Part shown: in pieces, positions 729-26,657 of the stretch
Numbering within the stretch: position 1 is the first letter of the stretch
How the letters are laid out: every line of letters starts with the position of its first letter
Source of the DNA: a virus
Lineage: Duplodnaviria; Caudoviricetes
DNA: 29,132 nt
Reading direction: 5' to 3' (one strand)
IMG/VR virus record: IMGVR_UViG_3300031260_000134
Span: 1-29,132 of that record
The notes under the pieces: generated by a model
What the model saw: the letters and a program-made list of their open reading frames with translations, nothing else
Told to the model about the DNA's origin: nothing
Databases searched by the model: none
Position numbers and translations under genes: made by a program

Positions 729-976
729 AGGCGATGCGGTTCACACCCAAAGGCTATGGTGGTCAGCGCCGCGATCCCGATCAGGTCAAAAGCGATGGCT
801 GGAAGGTGAGGAGGAACCGTCGCGCCAGTGGCGCGGCGAAAGTCCGACGAACGGGACTGCTGGCCGTCGCCATCGACGACGACCATCTGACCTGGCCCGA
901 GCGCGAACTGGTGCGCCAGCTTGGTGAGAAACTGTACCGCAAACTCCCCGCGGTCCGGGAGGTGCGCAATGGCTGA
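725..976 (+). CDS. Small hypothetical phage protein carrying an in-frame 16-codon palindromic insert
   Basis: GGAGG RBS, coupled to both neighbours; codons VRRNRRASGAAKVRRT correspond exactly to the repeat at 806-853. Confidence 0.7.
   Translation: MKAMRFTPKGYGGQRRDPDQVKSDGWKVRRNRRASGAAKVRRTGLLAVAIDDDHLTWPERELVRQLGEKLYRKLPAVREVRNG
806..853 (+). repeat. 48-nt palindromic element, copy 1 (diverged)
   Basis: GTGAGGAGGAACCGTCGCGCCAGTGGCGCGGCGAAAGTCCGACGAACG; same length, termini and CCAGTGG centre as copies at 15806 and 19767. Confidence 0.75.
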
Positions 977-1415
977 CTGGACCACAGGCCGTGTACAGGA
1001 CCGTCTCGAGACCGCGGCGGACGTCTTCGCACAGCTGCCCGCAGTGAAGCCGATAGGGTATTTCAACGCATGGCCCGAATATCTCCACAGCTTCGCCGAT
1101 CACGTGGGCCAGGAGCCGCAGATGAAACGCCCACGGCCTGGCCCGCGCATGATCACCGAGGCCGAGGAGGCGATGCTGTGGCTGCGCTGGCTGGAGCGCG
1201 ACGACGCCCGCATCGTCTGGCTGCGCGCCAACCGCAAGCCGTGGAAGAAGATCACCTGGGAGATCGGGCTCAGCCGCCCGGCCGCCAACCGGCACTGGCA
1301 ATACGGCGTCGCGCTGATCACCTGGCGGCTCAACGGGCGGGTGCCGTCCATGAGACGATCGCGGCGCTTCGTGGTCGAGAACGCCGACCGGCTGTCAAGG
1401 AAAATCATCCTGTGA
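969..1415 (+). CDS. DUF6362-like protein, putative HTH late-gene transcription regulator
   Basis: GGAGG RBS before ATG 969; HTH-like WKKITWEIGLSRPAANRHW; last gene before the late non-coding region, the position of Q/RinA-type activators. Confidence 0.65.
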   Translation: MADWTTGRVQDRLETAADVFAQLPAVKPIGYFNAWPEYLHSFADHVGQEPQMKRPRPGPRMITEAEEAMLWLRWLERDDARIVWLRANRKPWKKITWEIGLSRPAANRHWQYGVALITWRLNGRVPSMRRSRRFVVENADRLSRKIIL

Positions 1416-1530
1416 GGGAATTTTCGGAGAGACATTCAGGAGGGTTTCACGAACCGGCGCCGAGGGCTACAAACGGATATGATCGCACGAGACGTGACCC
1501 CAGGGACGGTGGCCTGCACCGCCGGCCTCC

Positions 1531-1871
1531 GGGGTCCAGCCGGGGTCCAGATGAGGTCGGAGGGAGAGACAGTTCGAAACCGGGCGAACGCCCGCCGCTT
1601 GACTGGACAAACTGTCTCCGCCGCCAGACAAGCCGTTGATTTTACGGTTCCTTTTCGCGCACTTCCTATGCTGGCGGGCGAAGCGCGCAATTTCGCTAGC
1701 GTCAGGGTGATTTTTTTGGGAGTCCACCCCGGTCGGAGTCCACCCTGGGACGCCTGAAAACGACGTAAAATCAAAGGCCTGACTGGACTCCGCAGGTGGA
1801 TACCTGCTGGACTCCGGAGTCCGGTTTGGAAGCCATTACTGGGGTCCACCTGCGGAATCCAGCTGGACCCC
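1531..1871. repeat. Cluster of about 10 copies of a 9-bp motif GG(A/G)GTCCA(C/G) in both orientations
   Basis: Forward at 1531, 1542, 1719, 1735, 1841 (variants 1816, 1854); reverse at 1783, 1807, 1863 (variant 1796). Confidence 0.75.
1641..1700 (+). other. Candidate cos (packaging/cleavage) site
   Basis: TTTACGGTTCCTTT...GGCGGGCGAAGCGCGCAATTTCGCTA resembles lambda cosQ-cosN (TTTACGGGTCCTTT...GGGCGGCGACCTCGCGGGTTTTCGCTA, recalled); phage has a gpA-type terminase. Confidence 0.5.
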
Positions 1872-1937
1872 GCCCCCAGAAGCCACGGTGCCGCCCCTCG
1901 ATGGGCGCGCGCCAACCAATCGAACAGGATCATCCTC

Positions 1938-3257
1938 ATGACCCTCGCCTTCGCCCCTGAGCGGATCGAGCACTGGCCGCTTGCGCGCCTGCAACCTTAC
2001 GCGAAGAACGCGAAGGTGCACGGCGCGGACCAGGTTTTGAGGCTCGCCGCCAGCATGGCCGAGTTCGGCTGGACCGTGCCCTGCCTCGTGGGCGAGGACG
2101 GCGAGTTGATCGCGGGGCACGGGCGCGTGCTGGCCGCGACGCAGTTGGGGCTGACCGAGGCTCCGGTGATCGTTCTCGGGCACCTGACCGAGGCGCAACG
2201 GCGGGCCTACCGCATCGCCGACAACCGGCTTGCCGAGAGCCCATGGGACGAGGCGCTGCTGTCGGCCGAACTGAACGAGTTGCTGGCCGAGGATTTCGAC
2301 CTGTCGCTGGTCGGCTTCTCCGACGGCGAGTTGGACAAGCTGCTGGCCTATGTGCCGGAAGGCGAAGGCGAGGATGGTGCTGGCCCGGGTGGCACAGTGC
2401 CGCCGGTGACCATCCCCGAACCGCCGCGCAACCCGGCGTCGCGCACGGGCGATCTGTGGATCCTCGGCGACCACCGGCTGCTTTGCGGCGACAGCACAAG
2501 CCATGCGGACGTGCGCCGACTGATGAACGGCGAGCGCGCAGTGCTGTTCGCGACCGATCCGCCGTATCTGGTGGATTATGACGGCTCGAACCACCCGACC
2601 CGCAACAAGGACTGGTCGGCGTCCTACGGGACGACATGGGACGACAGTTCGCAGGGGGCGGAGCTCTATGACGGGTTCATCGCCGCCGCCGTCGCCGAGG
2701 CCATCACCGAGGACGCCGCCTGGTACTGCTGGCACGCCTCGCGCCGCCAGGCGATGCTGGAGGCCTGCTGGGAAAAAGCCGGGGCCTTTGTGCATCAGCA
2801 GATCATCTGGGTGAAAGACCGCGGGGTTCTGACCCGGTCGCACTACCTCTGGAAGCACGAGCCCTGCTTCATGGGCTGGCGCCGCCCGAACCGCCCGCCG
2901 AAGGTGGCCGAGCAGACGCTGCCCTCGACCTGGGAAATGCCCAGCTTCGCCAAGGACGAGCGGCCCGACCACCCGACGCCCAAGCCGCTGGACGCCTTCG
3001 GGATCCCGATGCGCCAACACGTCGCGCGGGGTGGGCTCTGCTACGAGCCGTTTTCTGGCTCTGGCTCACAGATCATGGCGGGCGAGGCGAACGGCCGCCG
3101 CGTCTTCGCGATGGAGATCAGCCCGGCCTATGTCGATGTTGCCGTGGAGCGCTGGCAGGCGGAAACCGGCAAGGACGCGATCCTCGACGGCGACGGTCGG
3201 ACCTTCGCGGCAGTGAAGGAAGAGCGGCTGGGCGACAAGGCCGATGCCGCCGCCTGA
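1938..3257 (+). CDS. ParB-like N-terminal domain fused to N6-adenine/N4-cytosine DNA methyltransferase
   Basis: ParB-like LIAGHGR and IADNRL; catalytic TDPPY; HPTPKP; SAM-binding EPFSGSGS (beta-class motif order). Confidence 0.92.
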   Translation: MTLAFAPERIEHWPLARLQPYAKNAKVHGADQVLRLAASMAEFGWTVPCLVGEDGELIAGHGRVLAATQLGLTEAPVIVLGHLTEAQRRAYRIADNRLAESPWDEALLSAELNELLAEDFDLSLVGFSDGELDKLLAYVPEGEGEDGAGPGGTVPPVTIPEPPRNPASRTGDLWILGDHRLLCGDSTSHADVRRLMNGERAVLFATDPPYLVDYDGSNHPTRNKDWSASYGTTWDDSSQGAELYDGFIAAAVAEAITEDAAWYCWHASRRQAMLEACWEKAGAFVHQQIIWVKDRGVLTRSHYLWKHEPCFMGWRRPNRPPKVAEQTLPSTWEMPSFAKDERPDHPTPKPLDAFGIPMRQHVARGGLCYEPFSGSGSQIMAGEANGRRVFAMEISPAYVDVAVERWQAETGKDAILDGDGRTFAAVKEERLGDKADAAA

Positions 3258-4387
3258 TGGCCGTCTACTACAACGATGCCGATCCCGCGGCCTGCGAATG
3301 GCTGCGGGAACTGATCGCCGCCGGCCACCTTCCGGCTGGCGAGGTGGACGAACGGTCCATCCTCGACGTGAAGCCGTCCGACCTGCGGCGCTTCACCCAA
3401 TGCCATTTCTTCGCCGGGATCGGCGGCTGGCCCCATGCGCTGCGCCTCGCTGGCGTGGCCGAGGATCTGTCCGCCTGGACCGGCTCGCCACCCTGCCAGC
3501 CCTTCAGCCAGGCCGGGCAGCGCAAGGGACAGAACGATGACCGCCACCTCGCGCCAGCCTTCCTGCGCCTCATCGCCGTCTGCCGACCGGAACTCGTCTT
3601 CGGCGAGCAGGTCGCGAGCGCGGCCGTGCTCGGACGCGTTGGCAGAAAGCCTGGCGCGGCGGTTGAGGGCCCGGCTGACTGGGCGTGGTTCGACGCTCTG
3701 GCGGCTGAGCTGGAAGCGGCATCTTACGCCGTCGCGGCGGCCGATCTGCCGGCTGCGGGCATCGGTGCCCCGCACATCCGCCAGCGGCTCTTCTTCGGCG
3801 CTGTCGCCCTGGACACTGCCGAAAGCGGGCTGGCCGTCTCCGACGGTCGGGAATGGCGCGGGCGGGCAGAGATGGCCGCAGGGGACCTCCGCCTCCGGCC
3901 GGACGTCGGACGGGCGGAAAGTCACCGTGGCGCTACCGGGCGTGGCGCAGCTGGCGGGCTGGGCGACGGCCTCGGCGCGGGACCACAAGGACGGATCGGA
4001 ATGCAGGGCGGTGCCGATCAACGCGCTGCTGGGCCGGCAGGTCTGGCTGGCGGGCTGGCCGACGGCGATGGCGGGCTCGCCCGCGACGGCAGCGTACAAC
4101 GCGGCCGGCAACACCGATGCGAGTCGCAGGACGGTGAAACTTGTGGATTGGTCGACGGCACCGAGCCCACCGGGGCCAATGCGACGGACGGCGTCTGGCG
4201 AGATCCAGACTGGCTCCTCTGCCGGGATGGCCGCTGGCGGCCCGTTGAGCCCGGAACATTCCCGCTGGCTGATGGGATATCCGGCCGCATGGGGCTTCTG
4301 CGGGGCTACGGCAATGCGATCGTGCCGCCGCTCGCGGCGGAGTTCGTGATGGCGTTCATGGAAAGCATGCCGGAGGGGCTACGATGA
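3257..4387 (+). CDS. C5-cytosine DNA methyltransferase (large subunit: motifs I-VIII and X)
   Basis: FFAGIGG (I), PPCQPFS (IV), GEQV (VI), HIRQRLF (VIII), GYGNAIVP (X); TGATG coupling. Confidence 0.88.
   Translation: MAVYYNDADPAACEWLRELIAAGHLPAGEVDERSILDVKPSDLRRFTQCHFFAGIGGWPHALRLAGVAEDLSAWTGSPPCQPFSQAGQRKGQNDDRHLAPAFLRLIAVCRPELVFGEQVASAAVLGRVGRKPGAAVEGPADWAWFDALAAELEAASYAVAAADLPAAGIGAPHIRQRLFFGAVALDTAESGLAVSDGREWRGRAEMAAGDLRLRPDVGRAESHRGATGRGAAGGLGDGLGAGPQGRIGMQGGADQRAAGPAGLAGGLADGDGGLARDGSVQRGRQHRCESQDGETCGLVDGTEPTGANATDGVWRDPDWLLCRDGRWRPVEPGTFPLADGISGRMGLLRGYGNAIVPPLAAEFVMAFMESMPEGLR
3537..4349 (+). CDS. Nested alternative-frame ORF, putative methyltransferase small subunit (target recognition region + motif IX)
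   Basis: 270 codons open inside the MTase in another frame; AAGGGA upstream of ATG 3537; AGWPSP/AGWATA/AGWPTA repeats and LSPEHSRWLMGYPAAW. Confidence 0.6.
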   Translation: MTATSRQPSCASSPSADRNSSSASRSRARPCSDALAESLARRLRARLTGRGSTLWRLSWKRHLTPSRRPICRLRASVPRTSASGSSSALSPWTLPKAGWPSPTVGNGAGGQRWPQGTSASGRTSDGRKVTVALPGVAQLAGWATASARDHKDGSECRAVPINALLGRQVWLAGWPTAMAGSPATAAYNAAGNTDASRRTVKLVDWSTAPSPPGPMRRTASGEIQTGSSAGMAAGGPLSPEHSRWLMGYPAAWGFCGATAMRSCRRSRRSS

Positions 4388-4596
4388 GGCAGAGCCGCAC
4401 CATGTCGATGGTCGAGGCTGCGACGAACGTGGTTGTCGGCTATGGTCTGGCCATCGCCACGCAGATCGTCGTGTTCCCGTGGTTCGGGATCGAGACAGGG
4501 CTGGCCGAGCACATGACCATCGGCCTCGCCTTCATCGGCGTGTCGCTGGCACGGGGTTACCTGCTGCGTCGGCTGTTCGAGCGCTTGCGCGGCTGA
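4384..4596 (+). CDS. Small two-TM membrane protein typical of phage methylase clusters
   Basis: ATGA coupling, GGAGG RBS, two hydrophobic stretches, ARGYLLRRLFE C-terminus. Confidence 0.8.
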   Translation: MRQSRTMSMVEAATNVVVGYGLAIATQIVVFPWFGIETGLAEHMTIGLAFIGVSLARGYLLRRLFERLRG

Positions 4597-4643
4597 CGGA
4601 CTTTCCACTGGCAGGTGGTCTGTCGTGCTGTTAGCCATTCGAT

Positions 4644-4841
4644 ATGTCCGAAGGCTGGCGACACATCGAGATCACCGATCACGGCACGATCGTCGTGCTG
4701 CGCCCGATTTCCGACGAAGCGCGCGACTGGTTCGATGAGCATGTCGGCGAGCCCGATCCGGGCGGGGTCTACACCTGCGAGCCGCGCATGGCGCAGGATA
4801 TCCTTCAGGCCGCCGCGCGCGACCTCTTATCGTGGCAATGA
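4644..4841 (+). CDS. Small hypothetical protein
   Basis: 65 aa, protein-like composition and GC3 bias, followed by a hairpin; RBS weak. Confidence 0.6.
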   Translation: MSEGWRHIEITDHGTIVVLRPISDEARDWFDEHVGEPDPGGVYTCEPRMAQDILQAAARDLLSWQ

Positions 4842-4845
4842 AAGA

Positions 4846-4869
4846 CCGCCGCCCTGTGAAGGACGGCGG
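4846..4869. terminator. Hairpin between convergent genes, possible terminator
   Basis: CCGCCGCCCT-gtga-AGGACGGCGG (one mismatch); only a short T run on the minus strand. Confidence 0.4.
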
Positions 4870-4901
4870 CGAACTTCTGGGGTCTTGGTGAGCGGTCAGC
4901 C

Positions 4902-5426
4902 CTAAGCGATTTTATACACCCGCCCCCGATCCTCGACCTTCTCCGAGGTGATGGTCAGCCCGAGCCTTTTCTTGAGCGCGCCGGAGATTGCGCCCCTCGC
5001 GGTGTGAGGTTGCCAGTCCAGAGCTGCCACGATCTCGTCGATGGTCGCGCCGCCCTCGGCGCTCAGCATCGCGATCAGCGCGTCCTGCTTGGTGCCGCTG
5101 CGGCGGCGCACGGGCTGCGGTGTGGCCTCGGGCTCCGGCTGGCCGTCGTCCTGCGCGTCGGGCGGGTCGGTGATTCCGAGGGTGGCGTAGGCCAGCGGGG
5201 TGGCGCGCAGGGTGATCGGCCCGCGCTCTTCGTCATGCCGGTACACGGTGTTGAGGTCAGTGGCTTCGATTTCCTCGATGAGCCCGCGTTTCAGCAGGCT
5301 CTTGCAGACATTGCCGACCGCGCCGCCTTTGAGGGTGGTGGTGACGGGGAACACGGCCCCGTCGTCGCGCGCGCAGGCGGCGCTGAGGATCACGAGCTGG
5401 GCGTCGGATAGCTGGATCTGGGTCAT
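4902..5426 (-). CDS. DUF3489-like winged-HTH protein
   Basis: GTKQDALIAML...GATIDEIVAALDWQPHTARGAISGALKKRLGL...RVYKI; GGAG RBS. Confidence 0.85.
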   Translation of the reverse strand: MTQIQLSDAQLVILSAACARDDGAVFPVTTTLKGGAVGNVCKSLLKRGLIEEIEATDLNTVYRHDEERGPITLRATPLAYATLGITDPPDAQDDGQPEPEATPQPVRRRSGTKQDALIAMLSAEGGATIDEIVAALDWQPHTARGAISGALKKRLGLTITSEKVEDRGRVYKIA

Positions 5427-5523
5427 GGATGGTCTCCGGTTGCGGGCCGCGCGGGGTGCGCCGCCTTCTACCGGGTGAAGCCCGCCATCGAGGCGGGCCG
5501 TCCTTGGTCAGGGTCCGGAGGGG

Positions 5524-5793
5524 TTACCCGGCGTATTCGCCCTCGCCAAAGGCGCTGTCGGTGATGCGCTTCAGCAACCCGTTGTAGTGCTCGAGCGTGC
5601 CGACCATGGCCCAGCCCACCTCGTCGGGATGGCAGTTGAAGTGGTCGTCGCTGAGCGCCTGCAGACGGGCGAGCCGTTCGTCGATTTCGGCCTTCTTGCC
5701 GATGAAGGCGGCGAGTGCGGCTTCGCGGTTCCGCCTGGCCTTCTCGGCGCGGAGTTGGTGGCGGGGCGTGGTTTGCGGGTTCAGGCTGGTCAT
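5524..5793 (-). CDS. Small hypothetical phage protein
   Basis: GGAG RBS before ATG at 5793; helical protein ALAAFIGKKAEIDERLARLQALSDDHF; co-oriented with the DUF3489 gene. Confidence 0.8.
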   Translation of the reverse strand: MTSLNPQTTPRHQLRAEKARRNREAALAAFIGKKAEIDERLARLQALSDDHFNCHPDEVGWAMVGTLEHYNGLLKRITDSAFGEGEYAG

Positions 5794-5910
5794 GGCGTGG
5801 CTCCGTGTGGTGAGTTGCATCGTGCTTGTGCAATCAGAATCGCTCCGGGGCGGAACACAATCAACGGAAATCGCAGCAATAACATTGCTTTATGTCGCGC
5901 GGAGCGAATC

Positions 5911-6513
5911 ATGCAGGGCCTGAGCGAACGCCAGTATGCCGCCCGCGCGGGCCTGTCGCGCGGGGCGATCCAGAAGGCCAAGGAAGCTGGCCGACTGGTC
6001 TTGTTTGCTGATGGCAGTATCGACGCCGATGCGTCGGACACACGGCGCGCCGAGATGACCGACCCATCGAAATCCCGCGCCGCGCCCAAAGCGTCCGCGA
6101 CCGGCAAGTCCAAGCTGAAGCCGGTGCCCGAGGCCGCCGTCGCTGCGGTGGGGGACACGCTCAAGGAGCAGGGAATGGCCGCGCCGGCTGTCGGCGGTGG
6201 CACGACCTTCCTGCAGGCCAAGACCGCGAATGAGGTGTTGAAAGCGCAGGAACGCCGCATCCGGCTGCAAAAGCTGAAAGGCGAGTTGGTCGACCGCGCG
6301 CGGGCGGAAACCCTGATGTTCCGCCTTGCGCGCGAGGAACGCGATGCCTGGGTGACATGGCCTGCGCGTGTGGCGGCGCTGATGGCCTCGGAACTGGCGG
6401 CTGCCCTTGGAGAGGGGATCACGGTGGAGGCGGCGGTGATGCAGAAAGTCCTGGAAGCCCATGTCCGCGCCCAGCTCGACAGCCTCGCCGATATCCGCAG
6501 CGGCCTTGGGTGA
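5911..6513 (+). CDS. terS: Terminase small subunit (Nu1-like)
   Basis: GGAG RBS at about 5901; N-terminal HTH (LSERQYAARAGLSRGAIQKA), coiled coil KLKGELVD; directly upstream of terL. Confidence 0.8.
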   Translation: MQGLSERQYAARAGLSRGAIQKAKEAGRLVLFADGSIDADASDTRRAEMTDPSKSRAAPKASATGKSKLKPVPEAAVAAVGDTLKEQGMAAPAVGGGTTFLQAKTANEVLKAQERRIRLQKLKGELVDRARAETLMFRLAREERDAWVTWPARVAALMASELAAALGEGITVEAAVMQKVLEAHVRAQLDSLADIRSGLG

Positions 6514-8452
6514 GGATGTCGCGGGGTTCGATGGGGCAGACGACCTGCTGCGCGCCTGGTCGCGGGGCCTGCGGCCCGACCCGGACCTGACCGTGTCAGA
6601 GTGGGCCGACCGGCATCGCTGGCTGTCGTCGCGCGCCTCGGCGGAACCCGGGCGCTACAAGACCGCGCGCACGCCCTATATGCGCGAGATCATGGATGCG
6701 CTCTCGCCGGTCAGCCCGGTGCAGCGAGTGGTGTTCATGAAGGCCGCGCAGGTGGGTGCCACGGAAGCGGGCAACTGCTTCATCGGCTTTGTCATGCACC
6801 ACGCGCCGGGGCCGATGCTGGCGGTGCAGCCGACGGTAGAACTGGCCAAGCGCAACTCGCGCCAGCGGATCGATCCTCTGATCGAGGAAAGCCCGGAGCT
6901 GCGCGACCGGGTCAAACCCGCACGCTCGCGCGACGCGGGCAACACGATGCTGTCGAAGGAATTCGCGGGCGGCATCCTGATCATGACCGGCGCCAATTCG
7001 GCGGTGGGGTTGCGCTCGACCCCGGCGCGGTATCTGTTTCTGGATGAGGTCGATGCCTATCCGGCCTCGGCCGATGAGGAAGGCGATCCGGTCAGCCTCG
7101 CGGAAGCGCGGTCGCTGACCTTCGCGCATCGCCGCAAGGCATTGTTGATCTCGACGCCCACCATCCGCGGGCTGAGCAGGATCGAGCGGGAATTCGAGGC
7201 CAGCGACCAACGGCGCTATTTCGTGCCCTGTCCGCATTGCGGGCATGTGCAATGGCTGCGCTTCGAGCGGCTGCGATGGGAGAAGGGTCAGCCGGACACG
7301 GCGGAATACCACTGCGAGGGCTGCGACACCGCTATCGCCGAGCACCACAAGACAGCGATGCTGGCGGCGGGCGAGTGGCGTGCGACCGCGCAGTCGCAAG
7401 ACCCGCACACGGTGGGCTACCACCTCTCGGCGCTCTATTCGCCGATCGGCTGGCTCTCATGGGCGCGGATCGCGCGCGCCTGGGAGGCGGCACAGGGGTC
7501 GGACGAAGCAATGCGGGCGTTTCGCAACACCATCCTCGGCGAGACCTGGTTCGAGACCGGCGAGGCCCCGGATTGGCAGCGGCTGGCGGAGCGGCGGGAG
7601 ACATGGAAAGCGGGCACCGTGCCTGCGGGTGGCCTGTTCCTGACCGCGGGCGCCGATGTGCAGAAGGACCGCATCGAGATCGACGTCTGGGCCTGGGGCC
7701 GCGGGCTGGAAAGCTGGCTGGTGGACCACGTCGTCATCGAGGGCGGTCCCGGCGATCCGACCTGCTGGCAGAAACTGACCGAGCTGCTGGGGCGTACATG
7801 GGCGCATGCCTCTGGCCAGCATCTGATGATCGCCAAGCTTGCGATCGACACGGGTTATGAGACCAGCGCGGTTTACGCATGGGCGCGGCAGGTGGGCTTT
7901 GCGCAGGTGGCGCCGGTCAAGGGGCTCGAGGGCTTCAACCGCGCCAGCCCGGTGACGGGGCCGACCTATGTCGACGCCACCGTGGCTGGCCGCCGGCTGC
8001 GCCGCGGCGCGCGGCTGTGGTCGGTGGCGACCTCGACCTTCAAGGCCGAGACCTACCGCTTTCTGCGCCAGGAGCGACCGACACAAGAGGAAATCACGGA
8101 CGGGGCTTCGTTTCCGGCTGGAACGGTGCATCTGCCGACATGGGCCGATGGCGAATGGCTCAAGCAGCTGACGGCCGAGCAGCTGATCACAGTCAAGTCG
8201 AAGCGCGGCTTCACCAAGCTCGAATGGCAGAAGCTGCGCGAGCGCAATGAGGCGCTGGACTGCCGGGTCTACGCCCGCGCTGCCGCCTGGATTGCAGGGG
8301 CGGATCGATGGCCGGAAGCGCGGTGGGCAGAGTTGGCGCGGTCCTTCGCCGTGGAAACGGGCACATCCGCGCCCGATGGGACTGCGGGTTCTGCAACGTC
8401 GGCGCGCCCGTCTGCAAGGCGGCGGACAGTGCGGTCGAGTTACATGGGGTGA
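6461..8452 (+). CDS. terL: Terminase large subunit, lambda gpA family (true start may be TTG 6506)
   Basis: Walker A KAAQVGATE, Walker B YLFLDEVD, ISTPT, CPHC/CEGC, nuclease GADVQ, IDTGY, NEALDC. Confidence 0.95.
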   Translation: MSAPSSTASPISAAALGEDVAGFDGADDLLRAWSRGLRPDPDLTVSEWADRHRWLSSRASAEPGRYKTARTPYMREIMDALSPVSPVQRVVFMKAAQVGATEAGNCFIGFVMHHAPGPMLAVQPTVELAKRNSRQRIDPLIEESPELRDRVKPARSRDAGNTMLSKEFAGGILIMTGANSAVGLRSTPARYLFLDEVDAYPASADEEGDPVSLAEARSLTFAHRRKALLISTPTIRGLSRIEREFEASDQRRYFVPCPHCGHVQWLRFERLRWEKGQPDTAEYHCEGCDTAIAEHHKTAMLAAGEWRATAQSQDPHTVGYHLSALYSPIGWLSWARIARAWEAAQGSDEAMRAFRNTILGETWFETGEAPDWQRLAERRETWKAGTVPAGGLFLTAGADVQKDRIEIDVWAWGRGLESWLVDHVVIEGGPGDPTCWQKLTELLGRTWAHASGQHLMIAKLAIDTGYETSAVYAWARQVGFAQVAPVKGLEGFNRASPVTGPTYVDATVAGRRLRRGARLWSVATSTFKAETYRFLRQERPTQEEITDGASFPAGTVHLPTWADGEWLKQLTAEQLITVKSKRGFTKLEWQKLRERNEALDCRVYARAAAWIAGADRWPEARWAELARSFAVETGTSAPDGTAGSATSARPSARRRTVRSSYMG

Positions 8453-8462
8453 GATCGAGAAG

Positions 8463-9356: not shown

Positions 9357-9418
9357 GGATTCTCTCTTCCGGTTTAATGGGAATGAAAGACCCGTTTTGC
9401 CTGAGCAGGTCAACTCAC

Positions 9419-9634
9419 ATGCCGACAATTTCTGACCTTCGCGCGCGCCGCGACGCCCTCTCGGCGCAGCGGTCCTCTGGTGTGGCGCGCGTCAGCTATG
9501 ACGGCAAGACGGTGGACTATCGCTCTGTGGCCGAGATTGACCGGGCCATCGAGGCGCTTGATCGCGAAATTGCAACCCTCGAGGGACGGCGGATTGTACG
9601 GCAGCTGCGCATCACCACGACCAAGGGGCTGTGA
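9419..9634 (+). CDS. Head-tail joining protein, gpW-like
   Basis: 71 aa between terL and portal; GVARVSYDGKTVDYRS. Confidence 0.85.
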   Translation: MPTISDLRARRDALSAQRSSGVARVSYDGKTVDYRSVAEIDRAIEALDREIATLEGRRIVRQLRITTTKGL

Positions 9635-9637
9635 TCC

Positions 9638-11149: not shown

Positions 11150-11153
11150 CGCC

Positions 11154-12239: not shown

Positions 12240-12243
12240 CATC

Positions 12244-12615
12244 ATGACCACGCTCACTGAAGGCAAACACGCGGGCGGCTTCCTCACCTGGGAAGTGCTG
12301 CGCGACTACACCCGCGAAACTGTCACCCTCGCCTCCGGCGCCGGCAATCTCGCGCCCGGCAGCGTGCTGGGCAAGATCACGACGGGCGGCAAATACACAG
12401 TGCTGACCCCCGGTGCCACGAATGGCAGCCAGAATGCCGCTGGCATCCTCTGGGCCGCTGTCGATGCCACCGATGCCGACGCCCTCGGTGTGGTGCTTGT
12501 GCGCGGCCCGGCCATCGTGAACCGCCATGAGATCATCTGGCCCGAGGGTGCCACCGAGGCGCAAATCACCACCGCCACCACGGCACTTGCCGCGCTCGGC
12601 ATCATCCTGCGCTGA
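12244..12615 (+). CDS. Head decoration protein (gpD-like)
   Basis: 123 aa between protease and capsid; PGSVLGKIT, ALAALGIILR. Confidence 0.85.
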   Translation: MTTLTEGKHAGGFLTWEVLRDYTRETVTLASGAGNLAPGSVLGKITTGGKYTVLTPGATNGSQNAAGILWAAVDATDADALGVVLVRGPAIVNRHEIIWPEGATEAQITTATTALAALGIILR

Positions 12616-12664
12616 GCCAAGGCGCAACTTCCGCATCATTTGTGAAATAGAAGGAGGCTGGCTC

Positions 12665-13678
12665 ATGGCCACCATGGACATCTTTGAAGGCGACGCCTTC
12701 TCCATCATCGAGCTGACCCGCGCGCTCGAAAACATCCCCTTCAAGCCCGCGATCCTCTCGGGCGCCGGGCTCTTCGGCAGCCGCGGCGTGCGCACGCGCA
12801 CCGTGATGATTGAAAGCCGCGACGGCACCCTGTCGCTGATCCCGTTCTCGGAACGCGGCTCGGCCTACGAGTCCCAGATCCCCGAACGCCGCGACATGCG
12901 CGCCTTTGTTGTGCGCCAGTTCAAGAAGCAGGACGTGCTCTGGGCCTCGGAAATCCAGGGTATCCGTGATTTTGGCTCGGAAACCGCGGTGAGCCAAGTG
13001 CAGACCGAGATCGCGCGCAAGCTCGGACGGCTCCGCAATGATGCCGAGGCCACGTTTGAGTTCCATCTGTTCAACGGCATCCAGGGCGTCGTAAAGGACC
13101 CGCGCGACGGGGCCACGGTAATCGACTACCATGCCGAGTTCGGCATCACGCCCGCGGCGGAGGTGGACTTCGATCTGGACAACACGAGCCCCGCTTCTGG
13201 CGCGCTGCGCAAGCGGGCCCAGGCGCTGATCGAAAGCGTCGAGGACAGCCTCGGCGGGCTCGCTGCCGGTCAGGTGCAGCTGCGCGCTGAATGCGGATCG
13301 GCCTTCTTCGCCGATCTGGTGGCGCACAAGGAGGTGCGCGAGACCTATCTCAACACCGCCGCCGCCGCCGATCTGCGCGGCCGCGTCGGAGAAGAGGTCA
13401 GCTTCGGCGGCATCACCTTCCGCCGCTACCGGGGCGGGCTGGGCTTCGGCGTGCCGACCGACAAGGCGTATTTCTACCCCGAGGGCGTCGAGGGGCTGTT
13501 CGAGATCTACTACGCGCCTGCCGACACCTTCGAGACGGTCAACACCGTCGGCCTGCCGCTTTATGCGCGGATGATCCCCGATCGTGACCGCGACGAATGG
13601 GTGCGCCTCGAGATCGAGAGCAACCCGCTGCCGATCTGCACCCGCCCGCAGGTGTTGCGCAGCGCGCGGCGGACCTGA
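12665..13678 (+). CDS. Major capsid protein, lambda gpE-like
   Basis: AAGGAGG RBS before ATG 12665; 337 aa; YAPADTFETVNTVGLP, ESNPLPICTRP. Confidence 0.92.
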   Translation: MATMDIFEGDAFSIIELTRALENIPFKPAILSGAGLFGSRGVRTRTVMIESRDGTLSLIPFSERGSAYESQIPERRDMRAFVVRQFKKQDVLWASEIQGIRDFGSETAVSQVQTEIARKLGRLRNDAEATFEFHLFNGIQGVVKDPRDGATVIDYHAEFGITPAAEVDFDLDNTSPASGALRKRAQALIESVEDSLGGLAAGQVQLRAECGSAFFADLVAHKEVRETYLNTAAAADLRGRVGEEVSFGGITFRRYRGGLGFGVPTDKAYFYPEGVEGLFEIYYAPADTFETVNTVGLPLYARMIPDRDRDEWVRLEIESNPLPICTRPQVLRSARRT

Positions 13679-13989
13679 TGAGCGCCGTCGCCATGGCGCT
13701 TGATGCGCTGTTTACCGATGGTAATATCGGGATTGATGCGGTCTACCTTCCCGAAGGCGGGGTACCGGTTCTGGTCCGCGTGGTCACCCGCCGCGCGGAC
13801 GATGTCACCAGCTTTGGTGACACGCGGATCTGGTCGGAGACCACGCGCGTTGATCTGCGCGTGGCCGAGGTGCCAGCGCCGCGCCCCGGCGACCGCATCG
13901 AGATCGACAGCGAGGCGTTTCTCATCCAAGGGGAGCCGGTGCGGGATCGCGAGCGGCTCATCTGGACCGTGGATTTGAGGCCAGCGTGA
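13678..13989 (+). CDS. Head-tail connector (gpFII-like)
   Basis: TGATG coupling to capsid; PRPGDRIEID; position and size. Confidence 0.75.
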   Translation: MSAVAMALDALFTDGNIGIDAVYLPEGGVPVLVRVVTRRADDVTSFGDTRIWSETTRVDLRVAEVPAPRPGDRIEIDSEAFLIQGEPVRDRERLIWTVDLRPA

Positions 13990-14618
13990 AGCTGAAGCTG
14001 GACGTCACGCCCGATCTGGTCGCCATGATGGCCGCCGAGATCGCAGCGGGCGAAAAGGCCGTCTCCGCCGCAACGCGCGAGGCCGGGACCACTCTCAAGT
14101 CCGCCTGGCGCGCGCAGATCACCGGCGCGGGATTGGGTCAGAGGCTCGCGCGCACCATTCGCTCGGAGCAGTTCCCCAAGGGCAAGCCGAGCCTGAATGC
14201 GGCGGCGCTCGTCTGGTCCAAGGCACCGGTCATCATCGGCGCGCATGACACCGGACCGCTGATCCGCTCGCGCAACGGGTTCTGGCTGGCGATCCCGACG
14301 CCCGCCGCCGGGCGTGGCTTGCGCGGCGGCCGGATCACGCCCTTTGAGTGGGAACGCCGTCGCGGGCTGCGCCTGCGCTTCGTCTATCGCCGTCGCGGCC
14401 CGAGCCTGCTGGTGGCGGAGGGGCGGCTGAACACGAAGGGCCAGGCCGTGGTGTCGCGTTCGAAGACCGGGCGCGGCAAGGTCACCGCGCCGATCTTCCT
14501 GCTGGTGCCTCAGGTGAAACTGCGCAAGCGGCTGGATCTGGCGCGGGACGCCGAGCGCGCGCTCGACATCGTACCCGGGTTGATCGTCGCGAACTGGGTC
14601 GAGGCGCGCTTTCGATGA
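13986..14618 (+). CDS. Tail completion/minor tail protein (DUF6441, gpZ-like), basic
   Basis: GTGA coupling; Arg-rich; WLAIPT and PIFLLVPQVKL motifs; synteny. Confidence 0.75.
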   Translation: MKLKLDVTPDLVAMMAAEIAAGEKAVSAATREAGTTLKSAWRAQITGAGLGQRLARTIRSEQFPKGKPSLNAAALVWSKAPVIIGAHDTGPLIRSRNGFWLAIPTPAAGRGLRGGRITPFEWERRRGLRLRFVYRRRGPSLLVAEGRLNTKGQAVVSRSKTGRGKVTAPIFLLVPQVKLRKRLDLARDAERALDIVPGLIVANWVEARFR

Positions 14619-15289
14619 GATATTCAACGCAAAAACCTCTGGCGCCGGCAGCCGGACAGGGTCAGACTGCGTGTCGAACCATGCCGGGCCAAGCGATGCC
14701 ATCAACCGATCGACTGAAACAGGACAACGCCCATCTGTTACGGACGCAACGGCACTTCCGGCGTGCGGCAGACGTGATCACGGATGCCTGGTCCAGCTTC
14801 CCGCAGGTTGTGGCGATCGCGGTCATCGGATCGGTTGCCAAGCCCCTGTGGAAGGAAGTGCCGCGTTTCGCCCCGTATCGTCGCCGCGGCATTCCGCTAT
14901 GGCATGAATGCAAGGACCTCGACTTGGCGCTCTGGCTTGACGACCTGGCCGGCCTCGGTGATCTGCGGCGGGCAAAGGTGGCAGCGCTGAGGGCCGAGTA
15001 CGAGCGTCAACAGGATTTCGGCGTGGCGGACCATCAGGTCGACGTGTTCCTGTTCGAGCCTGGGAGCGACGCTTATCTCGGCCGGCTCTGTCACTTCAAT
15101 CGTTGCCCGAAGTCGCGGCCCGAATGCGCCGTACCAGGCTGCGGTGCAACGCCGTTCATGCGGCAGTTCCCCGAGTTCGAGGTGGATGGCGACATCCTCG
15201 CGGGCGTGGAGAGAAGCACCCTCTATACACGAGCCGAAGGCATCCGATGCTCCGCCACGGATTTTCCCGAGGCTGTCGACAGCGATTGA
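14615..15289 (+). CDS. Putative Pol-beta-superfamily nucleotidyltransferase with Cys-rich C-terminus (accessory gene; start 14615, 14681 or 14696)
   Basis: AIAVIGSVAK...KDLDLALW...QVDVFLF fits hG[GS]..DxD..D; CHFNRCPKSRPECAVPGC. Confidence 0.65.
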   Translation: MRYSTQKPLAPAAGQGQTACRTMPGQAMPSTDRLKQDNAHLLRTQRHFRRAADVITDAWSSFPQVVAIAVIGSVAKPLWKEVPRFAPYRRRGIPLWHECKDLDLALWLDDLAGLGDLRRAKVAALRAEYERQQDFGVADHQVDVFLFEPGSDAYLGRLCHFNRCPKSRPECAVPGCGATPFMRQFPEFEVDGDILAGVERSTLYTRAEGIRCSATDFPEAVDSD

Positions 15290-15362
15290 TCCTGCGCTCG
15301 CCTGATTTCCGGCCGCCTATCTGCGGGACTGGCGCTGAGCGCTCTGCCTCGAGAAATATGCC

Positions 15363-15782
15363 ATGCCCACCACCTTTGAGACCATCATCACCGCGCTGCA
15401 CGCGCGGCTATCGGGGCTGCCTGCCACCGCACTCCGCGGCGAGGTGCTGCCCGAGCGTGTCCCGGCCGAGGGCCTGCTGATCCTGCGCGATGGCGAGCCG
15501 GGGGAGCCGGAGGTGACGCTCTCGCCGCTGCGCTACCACTACCAGCACCGCGCCGAGATCGAGGCGGTCGTGCAGGGTGCAGCGCGTGACGCCGCCTTCG
15601 ACACGCTGACCGCCAGCATCGGCACGGCGCTCGCTGCCGACCGCACGCTGGGCGGGCTCTGTGACTGGGTCGAGGCGGAAGCGCCGCGGCCCGTGGACTT
15701 GGCCGTAGAGGGCGCAGCCAGCCTGAAGGCGGCGGTCATTTCGGTCGTCTTGCATTATTCAACTGACGACCCGCTTGGGTGA
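15363..15782 (+). CDS. Tail terminator-like protein
   Basis: 139 aa immediately before the tail tube gene; LAADRTLGGL. Confidence 0.75.
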   Translation: MPTTFETIITALHARLSGLPATALRGEVLPERVPAEGLLILRDGEPGEPEVTLSPLRYHYQHRAEIEAVVQGAARDAAFDTLTASIGTALAADRTLGGLCDWVEAEAPRPVDLAVEGAASLKAAVISVVLHYSTDDPLG

Positions 15783-15789
15783 ACCTGCG

Positions 15790-15897
15790 GCCAGCCTGAA
15801 GGCCGCGTTCGGCGGGACGACAGTCCACTGGACTGTCGTCTGATCCGCCTCACTCCCGGTGGTGCTGCACTATTCAACGGCCGATCCTCTGGCCTGA
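15790..15897 (+). pseudogene. Duplicated 3' end of the tail terminator gene containing the palindromic element
   Basis: ASLKA[insert]PVVLHYSTADPLA* versus ASLKAAVISVVLHYSTDDPLG* at 15717-15782; 108 bp versus 66 bp. Confidence 0.85.
15806..15853 (-). repeat. 48-nt palindromic element, copy 2
   Basis: Reverse complement GTGAGGCGGATCAGACGACAGTCCAGTGGACTGTCGTCCCGCCGAACG; perfect 12-bp inverted repeat. Confidence 0.9.
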
Positions 15898-15924
15898 TCC
15901 AACCGAAAATCAAGGAGACTTACC

Positions 15925-16878
15925 ATGTCACGAGCACAGGGAGCGCGGTCGCAAATGGCGCTGGCGTTCGAGTCGACCTATGGAATGCCGCCCGTCGGCG
16001 GCTTCACAAAGATGCCGTTTGCAAGCGCCACGCTGGGCGCGGAACAGCCTCTGCTGGATTCCGAGCTTCTTGGATATGGCCGCGATCCATTGCCACCGGT
16101 CAAAGACGCGGTCACGTCGGACGGCGATGTGGTAGTGCCGATCGACGCCGAAGCGTTTGGGTTCTGGCTGAAGGCGGCCTTCGGCGCGCCGACCACGACC
16201 GGCACCGGCCCCTGGACGCACGAGTTCCAGTCCGGGTCCTGGACGCTGCCCTCGATGTCGATCGAGACCGGCATGCCGGAGGTGCCGCGCTACGCTATGT
16301 ATTCCGGCTGCGTGCTGGATCAGCTCAGCTGGCAGATCCAGCGCTCCGGCCTGCTGACCGCCACCGCCCGGCTTGTGGCGCAGGGCGAGACCGTGGGCAC
16401 GACCACCAGCGCGTTCGGCGCACCCGCCTCACCACCCACCGCGCTGGAACTGAAGCGCTTCGGCCATTTCAACGGCGCGATCAAGCGCAACGGCGTGGAT
16501 CTGGGCAATGTGGTCTCGGCCGAGATCACCTACACGAACAATCTCGACCGGATCGAGACCATTCGCAGCGATGGCAGGATCGACGGGGCCGACCCAAGCA
16601 TCGCGGCGCTCACCGGCCGGATCGAGGTGCGCTTCGCTGACCAGACGCTTGTGACGCAGGCGATCAATGGCGATCCGTGCGAGATGGAATTCGCCTACGT
16701 CCTGCCGTCCGGCGAGAGTTTCACCTTCACCGTGCACGCCGTCTACCTGCCGCGCCCGCGGATCGAGATCTCCGGGCCGCAGGGCGTGCAGGCCACCTTC
16801 GACTGGCAGGCCGCGCGCGACAGCGTCGTCGGCCGGATGTGCACCGCAACCCTCGTGAATGATGTGGAGACGTATTGA
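15925..16878 (+). CDS. Major tail tube protein
   Basis: AAGGAG RBS; 317 aa, beta-rich; precedes chaperone and tape measure genes. Confidence 0.88.
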   Translation: MSRAQGARSQMALAFESTYGMPPVGGFTKMPFASATLGAEQPLLDSELLGYGRDPLPPVKDAVTSDGDVVVPIDAEAFGFWLKAAFGAPTTTGTGPWTHEFQSGSWTLPSMSIETGMPEVPRYAMYSGCVLDQLSWQIQRSGLLTATARLVAQGETVGTTTSAFGAPASPPTALELKRFGHFNGAIKRNGVDLGNVVSAEITYTNNLDRIETIRSDGRIDGADPSIAALTGRIEVRFADQTLVTQAINGDPCEMEFAYVLPSGESFTFTVHAVYLPRPRIEISGPQGVQATFDWQAARDSVVGRMCTATLVNDVETY

Positions 16879-17315
16879 TGCTGACGCTCGACCTGACCAA
16901 CGCCCCGCGCTGGCATGACCTGGCACCCGGTGTCCGCGTGCAGCTCCGCCCGCTGACCACCGCGCTGATGGTGGCGACCCGGAGCGATCCCGCCGTCGAG
17001 GCAGTTCCGGAGGAGGCGTCCGACGAGGAACGCGCGGTCGCCTTTGCCAAGGCGCTCGCGCGGCGCGCGGTGCTCGCCTGGGAGGGCATTGGCGATGCCG
17101 ACGGCAACCCCATCGATCCGAGCCCCGAGGCCATCGACGCGCTGCTCGACGTCTGGCCGATCTTCGAGGCCTTCCAGCTGACCTATGTCTCGAATGGGCT
17201 GCTGCTGGAGCAGGAAAAAAACGCCTCCGCGCTCTCGCCGAATGGGAATTCGGCGGGGGCGCGCGATACTGCGGAGCATGCGAAAGGGCGTGCGAAGACT
17301 GCCCCGCCAGACTGA
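16878..17315 (+). CDS. Tail assembly chaperone (gpG-like)
   Basis: TGATG coupling, GGAG RBS; VLAWEGIGDADG; in-frame slippery site A AAA AAC. Confidence 0.85.
   Translation: MLTLDLTNAPRWHDLAPGVRVQLRPLTTALMVATRSDPAVEAVPEEASDEERAVAFAKALARRAVLAWEGIGDADGNPIDPSPEAIDALLDVWPIFEAFQLTYVSNGLLLEQEKNASALSPNGNSAGARDTAEHAKGRAKTAPPD
17216..17263 (+). other. Programmed -1 frameshift signal
   Basis: A AAA AAC (17216-17222), 5-nt spacer, then a 16-bp stem CGCGCTCTCGCCGAAT-ggga-ATTCGGCGGGGGCGCG (two G-U pairs). Confidence 0.85.
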
Positions 17316-17542
17316 ACCAGCCCCTGACACATGAGGGTTGGCAGGTCTGGGACCTCGTCGGGCGCCTCGGCGGCCAGCTTCGCGTGCTGCCCGGCGCGGT
17401 GATCGGCTGGGACATGGGCGCGGCGCTGGCGCTCGGTGACGCGCTCGGCGTGCCGCCCATTGCCATGGCCGAACTGCTGCCCGTCATCGAGGCGGTGATG
17501 GTCGCCAAACTCAACGAACAGATGGATCATTCGCATGGCTGA
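17222..17542 (+). CDS. -1 frame extension of the chaperone (gpGT-like; full product 16878-17542, about 221 aa)
   Basis: Open frame RLRALAEWEFGGGARYCGACERACEDCPARLNQP...IGWDMGAALALG...LLPVIEAVMV; stop overlaps the tape measure start. Confidence 0.8.
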   Translation, partial: RLRALAEWEFGGGARYCGACERACEDCPARLNQPLTHEGWQVWDLVGRLGGQLRVLPGAVIGWDMGAALALGDALGVPPIAMAELLPVIEAVMVAKLNEQMDHSHG

Positions 17543-19700
17543 AAAAAGGGTCAGCGTCCGCCTCGCGGCCGTGGGCGGGCGACAAGTACGCTCCGAGCTC
17601 GAAGGCGTGGGCGAGGCCGGCAAGCGGGGCTTCGGGCGGCTCAGTGCGGAGATGGAGGCCGCGAACCGTCGGTTGGCCGCCTTCACACGCCGGGTGCGCG
17701 TCGTCGCAGCTGCCGCCGTCGCCGCCGCCGGCGTAGCGGGCGTTGCCATGGTGCGCTCCGGCCTCCAGACCGTCGATGCACAGGCCAAGCTGGCAGCCTC
17801 GCTCGACACCACTGTCGAGAGCATTCAGGTGCTCGAGCGCGCGGGCGATCTCGCAGGCGTGTCGATGGGTGAAGTCCAGCAGGCGACTGTCCAGCTGACG
17901 CGACGGCTCAGCCAGGCGGCGGCCGGGACTGGCCCGGCCGTCAAGGCGCTCGATCAACTGCGGCTCTCGGCGGCGGAATTGCAGGCCTTGCCATTGGACC
18001 AGCGCATCGCGCTGATCCAGGACCGGCTGTCGGAATTCGTGCCGCAGGCCGAACGCGCGGCGGTGGCCTCGCAGATCTTCGGCGACCGCGCAGCCGTGAT
18101 GTTCACCCGCATCGATAGCGCCACATTGCGCCAGGCGACGGAGGATGTGCGCGATTTCGGGGTGGTGGTCTCGGATCAGGACGCCGCGCAGATCGAGCGC
18201 ACCAATGACGCCATCTCGCGGCTCGGGCTGATCTGGCGGGGCCTGTCGAACCAGCTGGCCGTCGCCGCCGCGCCCGCGTTGGAGGCTGTCGCCGACGCCA
18301 TGGCGGCGGTCGCCCGCACCACCGGGCCGCTCGGGCAGGCCATCCGTGGCCTTTTTGACAATCTCGGGCGTCTGACGACCTATGCCACCACCTTCGTCAC
18401 ATTCATGGCGGGGCGCTGGGTGGCCGGGCTGGTTGCGGCGGCGGTGTCCGTGCGCGGGCTGGCAACGGCGCTGGTATTCCTGCGCGGCGCCCTGATCCGA
18501 ACCGGCATCGGTGCACTCATCGTCGGTGCGGGCGAGCTGGTCTATCAGTTCGGGCGGCTGGTCTCCGGTGCCGGTGGCTTTGGCAATGCGCTCGAGCTGA
18601 TGGGCGATGTGGCCCGCGCGGTCTGGGACGGCATGGGTCGCTATCTGGGCTCTTTCACCGACGACTTTCGCGCCATGCGCGCCGATATCGAGCGCATCTG
18701 GACGCAGATGATTGCCTTCCTCGCCGGTAAATGGGCCGATTTCCTCGGCCAGATTGCCCCGACCTTCAATGCAGTGTCCGAGCGCATCGGATCGTCTCTA
18801 CAGATCGACGTGATCGGGGCGCAGTCCTACGCGTCGTTTCTCGAAAACGCCGCCAATAATGCGGGCATCATGGCCGACCGCTTTCGCGAGCGTGCCGAGG
18901 AGACCCGCGCCACGGCCTTCGACGGCCTGCGCGAGGCAGCGGCCGCGCTGGTGGCGGCGGTTCAGGGTTCGGGGGCGGAGACCGATGACGCGAGCGCCGC
19001 GGCGCAGCGCATGGCCGATGCGCTCGCAGAGGCCGAGACCACCGCAAAGCGCGCGGGTGCAGCCGGAGAAGGGGCAGGGAAGAAAACCAAAAAAGGCGCG
19101 AAGGAAGCGCTGACCGGATGGGAAGCGGTCACCAAAGCCGTCAGCGACTATGCGAAAGAGGCCCGCGAGATCGGCGCCGATCTCGGCCAGAGCCTCGTCG
19201 GTGCCTTCCAATCCGCGGAAACGGCCGTGGCCGATTTCGTGCGCAATGGAAAGCTCGAATTCAGCGATCTGGTGACCTCGATGATCGCCGATCTTGCGCA
19301 GCTCGCGGCGCGGCGTTTCATCCTCGCGCCGCTCACCAGTGCGGTCTCCGGCGCGCTTGGCGGCGCTGGCGGAATCTTTGCCGACATCCTGCATGCGGGC
19401 GGCACGGTGGGCATGCCCGGACCCTCACGCATGGTCCCGGCGATGGCCTTTGCCGCCGCGCCCCGGATGCATTCCGGCGGCATGGCCGGGCTTCGCCACG
19501 ACGAGGTTCCGGCGATCCTGCAGCGCGGCGAGCGGGTGCTCTCGCGGCGGGAAGCTGCCGGATACGGCGCGCGTGGCGATGGCGGGACGACTGTCAATGT
19601 CACCATCATGGCGCGCGACGCCGAGAGCTTCCGCCAATCAAGGACACAGGTCGCTGCGGATATTGCTCGAGCAGTTTCTCTTGGGCGGAGGGGGCTGTGA
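17535..19700 (+). CDS. Tail tape measure protein
   Basis: 721 aa, Ala-rich helical; C-terminal HSGG...DEVPAILQRGERVL. Confidence 0.92.
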   Translation: MAEKRVSVRLAAVGGRQVRSELEGVGEAGKRGFGRLSAEMEAANRRLAAFTRRVRVVAAAAVAAAGVAGVAMVRSGLQTVDAQAKLAASLDTTVESIQVLERAGDLAGVSMGEVQQATVQLTRRLSQAAAGTGPAVKALDQLRLSAAELQALPLDQRIALIQDRLSEFVPQAERAAVASQIFGDRAAVMFTRIDSATLRQATEDVRDFGVVVSDQDAAQIERTNDAISRLGLIWRGLSNQLAVAAAPALEAVADAMAAVARTTGPLGQAIRGLFDNLGRLTTYATTFVTFMAGRWVAGLVAAAVSVRGLATALVFLRGALIRTGIGALIVGAGELVYQFGRLVSGAGGFGNALELMGDVARAVWDGMGRYLGSFTDDFRAMRADIERIWTQMIAFLAGKWADFLGQIAPTFNAVSERIGSSLQIDVIGAQSYASFLENAANNAGIMADRFRERAEETRATAFDGLREAAAALVAAVQGSGAETDDASAAAQRMADALAEAETTAKRAGAAGEGAGKKTKKGAKEALTGWEAVTKAVSDYAKEAREIGADLGQSLVGAFQSAETAVADFVRNGKLEFSDLVTSMIADLAQLAARRFILAPLTSAVSGALGGAGGIFADILHAGGTVGMPGPSRMVPAMAFAAAPRMHSGGMAGLRHDEVPAILQRGERVLSRREAAGYGARGDGGTTVNVTIMARDAESFRQSRTQVAADIARAVSLGRRGL

Positions 19701-19729
19701 CCATGCCTTGCCTGATCATCAATGGATGG

Positions 19730-19858
19730 CGCGACGACGAGAGCTTCCGGCAGTCGCGGACGCAGGGTGAGGCCGAAGAGCGGAACGTCCAGTGGACGTT
19801 CCGCCGGCCGAACGCCGATATCGCGCGCGCGGTCAAACTTGGCAGGCGGGGCATGTGA
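19730..19858 (+). pseudogene. Duplicated 3' end of the tape measure gene containing the palindromic element (within a 51-aa ORF, 19703-19858)
   Basis: RDDESFRQSRTQ[GEAEERNVQWTFRRPN]ADIARAVKLGRRGM* versus RDAESFRQSRTQVAADIARAVSLGRRGL* at 19614-19700; 129 bp versus 87 bp. Confidence 0.85.
19767..19814 (+). repeat. 48-nt palindromic element, copy 3
   Basis: GTGAGGCCGAAGAGCGGAACGTCCAGTGGACGTTCCGCCGGCCGAACG; perfect 12-bp inverted repeat. Confidence 0.9.
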
Positions 19859-26647: not shown

Positions 26648-26657
26648 AAGCCAACCC

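Follow-up and report, generated by a model that had tools for sequence, protein, structure and literature searches.

Palindromic repeats inside genes have long been known, and how most of them move is still open. Several described systems come close to the one treated here, a family of small hairpin elements in a 29,132-nt stretch of viral DNA (Caudoviricetes; IMG/VR record IMGVR_UViG_3300031260_000134, positions 1 to 29,132; hereafter the window). Repetitive extragenic palindromes (REPs) with a GTAG or CGTC tag carry it at one end of a 5-13 bp stem, are 20-40 bp long, often occur as dimers and form many high-copy families; in the GTAG class a RAYT (Y1) gene is flanked by the repeats, and the CGTC class is without a linked transposase (PMC3733652). 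Rickettsia palindromic elements (RPEs) are 105-146 bp long with 12-bp terminal repeats and are specific to Rickettsia, where these palindromic inserts are tolerated in frame in proteins and also occur in RNA genes (PMC2229807). Small dispersed repeats (SDRs) of about 20 bp are confined to the Nostocaceae, as cited in PMC5861425, PMC3116915 and PMC2884548. MITEs (miniature inverted-repeat transposable elements) have terminal repeats, TA ends and a target duplication, and CIRs are two-armed, about 110 bp long and not intragenic (PMC2229807, PMC3184786). SE and Tn554 elements encode tyrosine recombinases, add a 6-bp footprint and keep the target spacer (PMC10214605), and SsnA binds a hairpin in single-stranded DNA (ssDNA) and cuts a few nucleotides 5′ of it (PMC11893778).

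Against this background the element in the window offers a sharp junction rule. It is real and mobile, and it is likely to be a very small selfish element whose movement relies on an enzyme from elsewhere. The reading that we favour, by a modest measure, is that of a short, non-coding hairpin whose ends are fixed, which replaces six target bases and moves as a folded single DNA strand, the enzyme being supplied in trans.

Elements in the window

The earlier note described three 48-nt elements in the window. All three were recovered at the claimed coordinates and with the claimed sequences, including the ends that they share, the CCAGTGG at their centre and the covarying stems. However, a fourth, 21-nt member had been overlooked. 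The four copies, with their covariance-model (CM) scores where given, are as follows.

806..853, plus strand: copy 1, 48 nt, lying in frame within a small gene to which it adds 14 codons net, 41.7 bits
15806..15853, minus strand: copy 2, 48 nt in place of 6 bp, 67.9 bits
19767..19814, plus strand: copy 3, 48 nt in place of 6 bp, reading frame open, 64.8 bits
16412..16432, minus strand: copy 4, 21-nt short member with the same ends, CM-detected, displaces 6 bp

Three matches to the element pattern were found in the window, against none in 300 Markov shuffles. Contigs assembled from public run X1 cross copies 2, 3 and 4 without difference, and one contig from run X2 crosses copy 3, so these copies are not assembly errors. 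In contigs from RNA run X9 that extend across copies 2 and 3 the element is retained, which gives no sign of removal at the RNA level; such contigs cannot show transcription.

Junctions at filled and empty sites

Empty homologues were found for all four sites in the window. The copy-1 site was empty in 80/80 homologues, with 5 nt ahead of the shared G, and the copy-4 site in 50/51 orthologues. The replacement of 6 bp by 48 nt, proposed previously for copies 2 and 3, was borne out and holds for copy 1 too, where the displaced 6 bp most often read GAACAG in homologues. Across all filled loci with an empty homologue, which are not independent of each other, the element plus its terminal G stands in place of 6 bp in 34/35 and of 5 bp in one. 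After clustering, a simple 6-bp swap without target duplication was seen at 17/35 independent sites; one of the remainder is off by a base and the others have extra 3′ hairpins or duplications. Members of other lengths behave likewise, four of six (21, 42, 42 and 54 nt) replacing 6 bp. The sixth target base is usually G. Three sites in the insertion sequence (IS) IS256 have T, T and C when empty but G when filled, showing that the terminal G is supplied by the element and that the count of 48 for 6 is correct. One degenerate IS256 copy has a 4-nt gap in its alignment. At 224 independent sites the base 5′ of the element was G in 181, A in 27, C in 15 and T in one. Insertions occur in both orientations, and the 5′ junction is constant while the 3′ content varies.

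A 6-bp unit could also be produced by a 3′-phosphotyrosine enzyme, either a tyrosine recombinase or a type IB topoisomerase (TopIB), if the target were opened with a 6-bp stagger, the 5′-OH ends of the element attacked both phosphotyrosines and the six bases were displaced. Tyrosine recombinases typically have an overlap of 6 bp. The spacer of SE elements measures 6 bp (PMC10214605), and TopIB was present in 10/21 element-rich versus 4/20 element-free genomes. However, at p=0.10 this difference falls short of significance, and the enzyme is absent from the two richest genomes of the TopIB test (G379 and G593). Moreover, the targets have just a G at -1 and no recombinase-like arms, and SE/Tn554 integration, whilst adding its footprint, removes no target bases (PMC10214605). 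We therefore regard capture by a phosphotyrosine enzyme as improbable.

Structure of the element family

Only the ends and the loop of the element are near-constant. The ends, GTGAG and CGAACG, form a foot in which GT pairs with AC, followed by two G·A oppositions (a tandem G·A). Above the foot stands a 5-bp stem; a bulge, on either of the arms, separates it from a 10-11-bp stem capped by CCAGTGG or CCGGTGG. In 116 element sequences pairing holds in 96.3% of 1983 cells, and the covariation score was 0.588 compared with 0.128 for shuffled and at most 0.122 for slid alignments, a score biased toward structure because the sequences were pre-selected for folding. A strand-symmetric count in 302 elements gave 66 G·T/T·G against 22 A·C/C·A oppositions, identifying the GTGAG strand as the structured one.

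Members 21 to 59 nt long with other interiors retain identical ends, and copies nest in one another and build tandem units. On the 3′ side further hairpins occur. C(GNA)G mini-hairpins lie downstream of the element on the same strand at 36/224 sites and on the other strand at 4, and a second hairpin family with NGGA-type loops occurs there together with GNA-triloop mini-hairpins (L140, L237, L961, L1024 and others). Triloops of the C(GNA)G type are a DNA-type fold. A variant with the same ends and a different inner hairpin was observed at the stop codon of tape-measure genes (L1063, L1084, L1108); its core is, in what we take to be a resemblance, reminiscent of CIR/RIME-type repeats.

Copy 4 equals the 40-nt member of locus L567 minus the stretch between two CGCC repeats, and it is therefore probably a collapse of a member of that kind which restored the frame. 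A pattern scan for other members of 20-24 nt gave matches that were mostly indistinguishable from chance, only the tail-gene site of copy 4 being confirmed. A still shorter class of 16-18 nt with the same ends, such as the 16-nt GTGAG-C(GNA)G-T-CGAAC, mostly has a GNA triloop and was retrieved with a short motif, giving 95 viral-contig stretches in 73 distinct contexts, some of which look like the ends of tmRNA. Its 16-nt members (L1117-L1211) often lie within larger palindromes, and no open reading frame (ORF) with a GIY-YIG motif was found within 600 nt of them. This class hints at a wider superfamily.

Distribution and copy number

The CM search suggested in the earlier note found further copies beyond the window. 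A pattern scan of viral sequences gave 119 loci with a length peak at 47 nt (42/119; the remainder are largely chance), and scans of genomes and metagenomes each gave 121 loci, of an estimated 860 and 3700 respectively. Hosts include Alphaproteobacteria (Rhodobacterales and Rhizobiales), Gammaproteobacteria, Nitrospira, Acidobacteriota and Lachnospiraceae. Copies per genome are few, about 1-22, and the CM maximum was 22 in one genome. The pattern was present in 156/401 genomes of a Rhodobacterales sample, with up to 12 copies each; a reversed control gave about 50 matches, so many of the single matches there are chance. Stricter patterns were found in 8/251 genomes in the order of a Neorhizobium genome and in 9/251 Lachnospiraceae-family genomes. 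BLAST of one copy against plasmids gave one weak match. In 80 stretches of related prophages (964 kb) the CM found two strong matches only, plus weaker variants, which indicates that the window is unusually rich in elements.

Copies are often found in prophages, IS fossils, tRNA fragments and gene ends. A 134-kb Cereibacter plasmid (NZ_CP090024.1) has five strong matches, one in an unannotated transposase-like stretch and four, all different, in a single IS256 fossil (26635-27852; L543, G133:C58). Element-tRNA pairs less than 700 nt apart numbered 20 among 305 elements. In one Neorhizobium genome the element was also observed nested in a larger intergenic repeat that occurs three times (L411, L412, L416).

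Flanking duplications

The left flank of the element is repeated within 500 nt at 25/224 sites compared with 3/180 controls (p=1e-4). In the duplicated cases inspected, copies 2 and 3 among them, the duplicate restores the gene or tRNA that was struck. The empty copies of the site previously noted within the window are functional duplicates of gene ends that are tied to the insertions. The genes and gene ends concerned, with the host gene of copy 1, are as follows.

725..976, plus strand: host gene of copy 1, PHROG 19772, unknown function; the ORF remains open
15363..15782, plus strand: tail-terminator gene; a replacement 3′ end, synonymously diverged, makes up its final 67 nt (about 15716-15782)
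15789..15897, plus strand: former 3′ end of the tail-terminator gene, surviving as a dead duplicate that bears copy 2; 5/61 differences
19613..19700, plus strand: functional, synonymously diverged 3′ end of the tape-measure gene (17535-19700), containing the empty site
19729..19858, plus strand: duplicate of the tape-measure 3′ end that bears copy 3 and is coupled to the following start codon

The tail-terminator gene is completed by the upstream, more diverged 3′ end, which has 13/61 differences when set against the majority of orthologues (with a single-copy median of 5 and a maximum of 15) compared with the 5/61 of the dead downstream end. Among 74 parsed sequences of the copy-2 site (7/80 loci being without the anchor), 66 have neither element nor duplication, four, including the window, have both, and four have other inserts. 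Similarly, the second gene-end copy at the copy-3 site is present in 0/76 anchored orthologues and in all four other filled loci. The tail-terminator site was also observed to be an insertion hot spot, related phages (L394, L336, L409, L385) having inserted cargo genes there.

The same arrangement is found at tRNA genes. An element in the tRNA D-loop was present in 17/251 genomes, at loci selected by the pattern itself. All 24 listed loci of 25 run from a tRNA start through the element, further hairpins and a repeated start to an intact tRNA, sometimes with tandem units between. The duplicate starts 59-110 nt after the element or beyond further tandem units, and duplications can take in upstream DNA that is not tRNA. 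Element-broken tRNA fragments were observed in tandem, up to three units, ahead of intact tRNAs (L961-L985, L986-L995), those in Lachnospiraceae being at tRNA-Leu, some with a fold-back palindrome built from tRNA sequence.

Fragments of tRNA and duplicated gene ends are classic integration sites, and the frequency of the element in both would suit the excision scar that the earlier note had offered as an alternative, that is, an att-site remnant of a larger integrative element. This was not supported. The interiors vary from 21 to 59 nt and covary, and copies are nested in each other and in tandem units, which already disfavours a scar. In addition, the duplications may include non-tRNA upstream DNA and start at varying distances from the element, the tRNA loci are without an ORF bearing a GIY-YIG motif, and one IS256 holds four different copies. 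We consider an origin by excision very improbable.

Effects on genes and the setting of the window

Insertion lengthens phage proteins by 5-16 residues and provides stop codons, and it leaves behind broken duplicates of tRNAs and gene ends, which resemble integration scars. Preservation of the reading frame, proposed earlier as a property of the elements, is seen in the coding copies of the window, including copy 4, which sits in frame (+15 nt) within a tail gene (15925-16878, PHROG 290) and recurs as an identical insert at the same site in six other contigs. However, copy 2 puts a TGA in the frame of the tail-terminator gene. Since core lengths run from 45 to 52 nt across the family and one reading frame always has a TGA, frame preservation looks like selection at coding sites and not a family property. 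The TGA of the element terminates an ORF of 150 or more codons at 36/151 cellular sites, compared with 11 and 5 in the other frames. In two gammaproteobacterial genomes (L1024, L1008) the element supplies the stop codon of a gene which, from a C-terminal motif, we take to be XerD-like.

The gene content of the window is that of the morphogenesis region of a lambda-like prophage, with terminase, portal, capsid, tail-terminator, tape-measure and tail genes (PHROGs scan of 33 ORFs). Its host is inferred from where identical filled sites recur, which points to an alphaproteobacterial prophage. A GC-rich segment of about 120 nt (about 3820-3960) inside the methyltransferase gene at 3257-4387 was observed to be missing in at least one related phage.

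Mobilising enzyme and proposed mechanism

No transposase, recombinase or reverse transcriptase was found among the 33 ORFs of the window that were scanned. Together with the filled and empty sites and the 6-bp replacement, this supports the idea of a minimal, structure-selected, non-autonomous element with no mobiliser in the window. The insertion rule is a matter of direct comparison; the enzymatic steps are all inferred. The GT/AC pairing and tandem G·A of the foot would unite the two ends and serve as the feature recognised by the enzyme. Two openings 6 nt apart would be made in the target, whose 3′ end would be joined to the 5′ G of the element, and the 3′ end of the element would be joined 6 nt further on. 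Where the 3′ end bears extra hairpin modules or is re-joined upstream, repair synthesis by the host would give the duplications that spare genes and tRNAs. The most likely enzyme class would be a hairpin-reading ssDNA nuclease or strand-transferase, of the Ssn-type GIY-YIG or HUH kind. We favour movement of folded ssDNA in trans because the 5′ junction is fixed and the 3′ content variable, the fold is strand-specific, and both the G·A foot and the C(GNA)G modules are present.

Several results weigh against this interpretation. A recurring mobiliser was not found among the ORFs near 190 cellular loci, nor in the 140/372 ORFs scanned; the only families recurring next to the element are ABC transporters and the IS transposases that it has struck. 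None of the candidate enzymes is enriched in element-rich over element-free genomes (Y1 3/20 versus 3/20, Y2 2/21 versus 3/20, short GIY-YIG genes about 4/20 versus 4/20), the element-free set having been picked by one exact pattern, so that it may include degenerate copies, and assemblies may be incomplete. The Y1_Tnp counts leave the RAYT/HUH analogy, drawn in the earlier note, unproven, and the CM had no match in the eight Y1 loci. Where element-bearing genomes have Ssn-like genes, the repeats flanking these are different ones, with no CM match in 12 such loci, and an ORF with a GIY-YIG motif was found in 0/35 loci, which are mostly at tRNA genes. Of the 17 copies in G593, a single weak one lies about 390 nt from a short GIY-YIG gene. 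Neither was there a replication-strand bias, which ssDNA targeting might give, in a test that is weak (KOPS 40 versus 32, GC skew 73 versus 88). Lastly, the G·T tolerance of the structured strand fits RNA as well as DNA.

This last point bears on a retro-element, in which a short structured RNA would be copied into the target by target-primed reverse transcription, the stagger of the nicks leading either to the loss of 6 bp or to duplication of a longer segment. A single structured strand tolerant of G·U would suit such an element, as would the many copies in tRNA and gene-end contexts. Non-LTR insertions show a fixed junction, extra sequence and variable duplications of this type, much like the fixed 5′ junction, added 3′ sequence and variable duplications seen here. 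Nevertheless, RVT_1 was found in 7/20 element-rich versus 9/20 element-free genomes, no CM match lay in the ten reverse-transcriptase loci scanned, and the downstream modules have C(GNA)G triloops. Reverse transcription is therefore unlikely, and we return to folded ssDNA as the preferred route.

The fixed ends, the 6-bp replacement and the free interior, seen over many filled and empty sites, make a defined substrate for hunting the mobilising enzyme. A wider and more doubtful proposal, which we put forward tentatively, is that a cross-phylum superfamily of 16-60-nt elements may be defined solely by the GT/AC and tandem G·A foot. Its members would be integrated by an undescribed 'swap' in which six bases of the target, at near-random G sites, are given up for whatever hairpin is carried. 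The same event could duplicate the end of the struck gene, letting tRNAs and phage genes survive, and its enzyme would represent a novel type of short-DNA integrase. If it is true that the enzyme accepts any hairpin between both ends, it would offer a compact means of writing short DNA with no duplication of the target.

Comparison with known systems

Comparison with Rfam and with the published definitions of REPs and RPEs, in line with the advice of the earlier note, revealed no match to these. No Rfam score was above the gathering threshold, the best in the window being BASRCI153 (25.3 bits against 137), and nothing was found on the element in six more loci. No description of the element was found in the portions of the literature covered by full-text searches, including PMC5994717, PMC2700814, PMC3733652 and PMC2996986, the primary SDR, RIME, CIR and Bru-RS papers falling outside this scope. 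Nor was there a motif match to the multicopy families of Geobacter in 12/15 supplementary files of PMC2996986, where alignments given as pictures and files 13-15 could hide one. By inspection, likeness to a hammerhead (no CUGANGA core), to attC (GTT/AAC order reversed) and to CRISPR repeats (no spacer array) was rejected.

In its mode of working the element resembles REPs, RPEs and SDRs. With SDRs, as described in citing papers, it shares the form of a very small mobile hairpin. SDRs, in work by Elhai from 2008, reportedly show nesting and structural covariation. No element was found in 50 kb of a Nostoc plasmid. Like RPEs, the element is palindromic and lies in frame in proteins and in RNA genes; unlike them, it is 21-59 nt long, has an imperfect foot and crosses phyla. 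It is non-autonomous and structured in the manner of alphaproteobacterial MITEs and CIRs, and some of its copies nest in larger repeats, but in contrast to MITEs it loses 6 bp, duplicates none at simple sites and has no transposase-type terminal repeats. With SE/Tn554 it has in common a 6-bp unit at the junction and a strand bias, whereas it is without coding capacity and its target bases are lost. Ssn NTS/SRM hairpins are likewise strand-specific hairpin repeats with tagged flanks, the Ssn enzyme cutting ssDNA just 5′ of the hairpin (PMC11893778), yet the degenerate SRM pattern matches 0/224 element sites. The tagged REPs are also short palindromes, with unpaired tags, some of them intragenic and with termini that can give a stop codon (PMC3733652); in keeping with this, the element has in-frame copies and ORFs that end at its TGA. 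It differs from them in having both ends fixed (GTGAG, CGAACG), a bulged and longer two-part stem, about 1-22 copies and a 6-bp replacement, and from the GTAG class in showing no link to RAYT (Y1_Tnp in 3/20 versus 3/20 genomes, and no CM match at Y1 loci).

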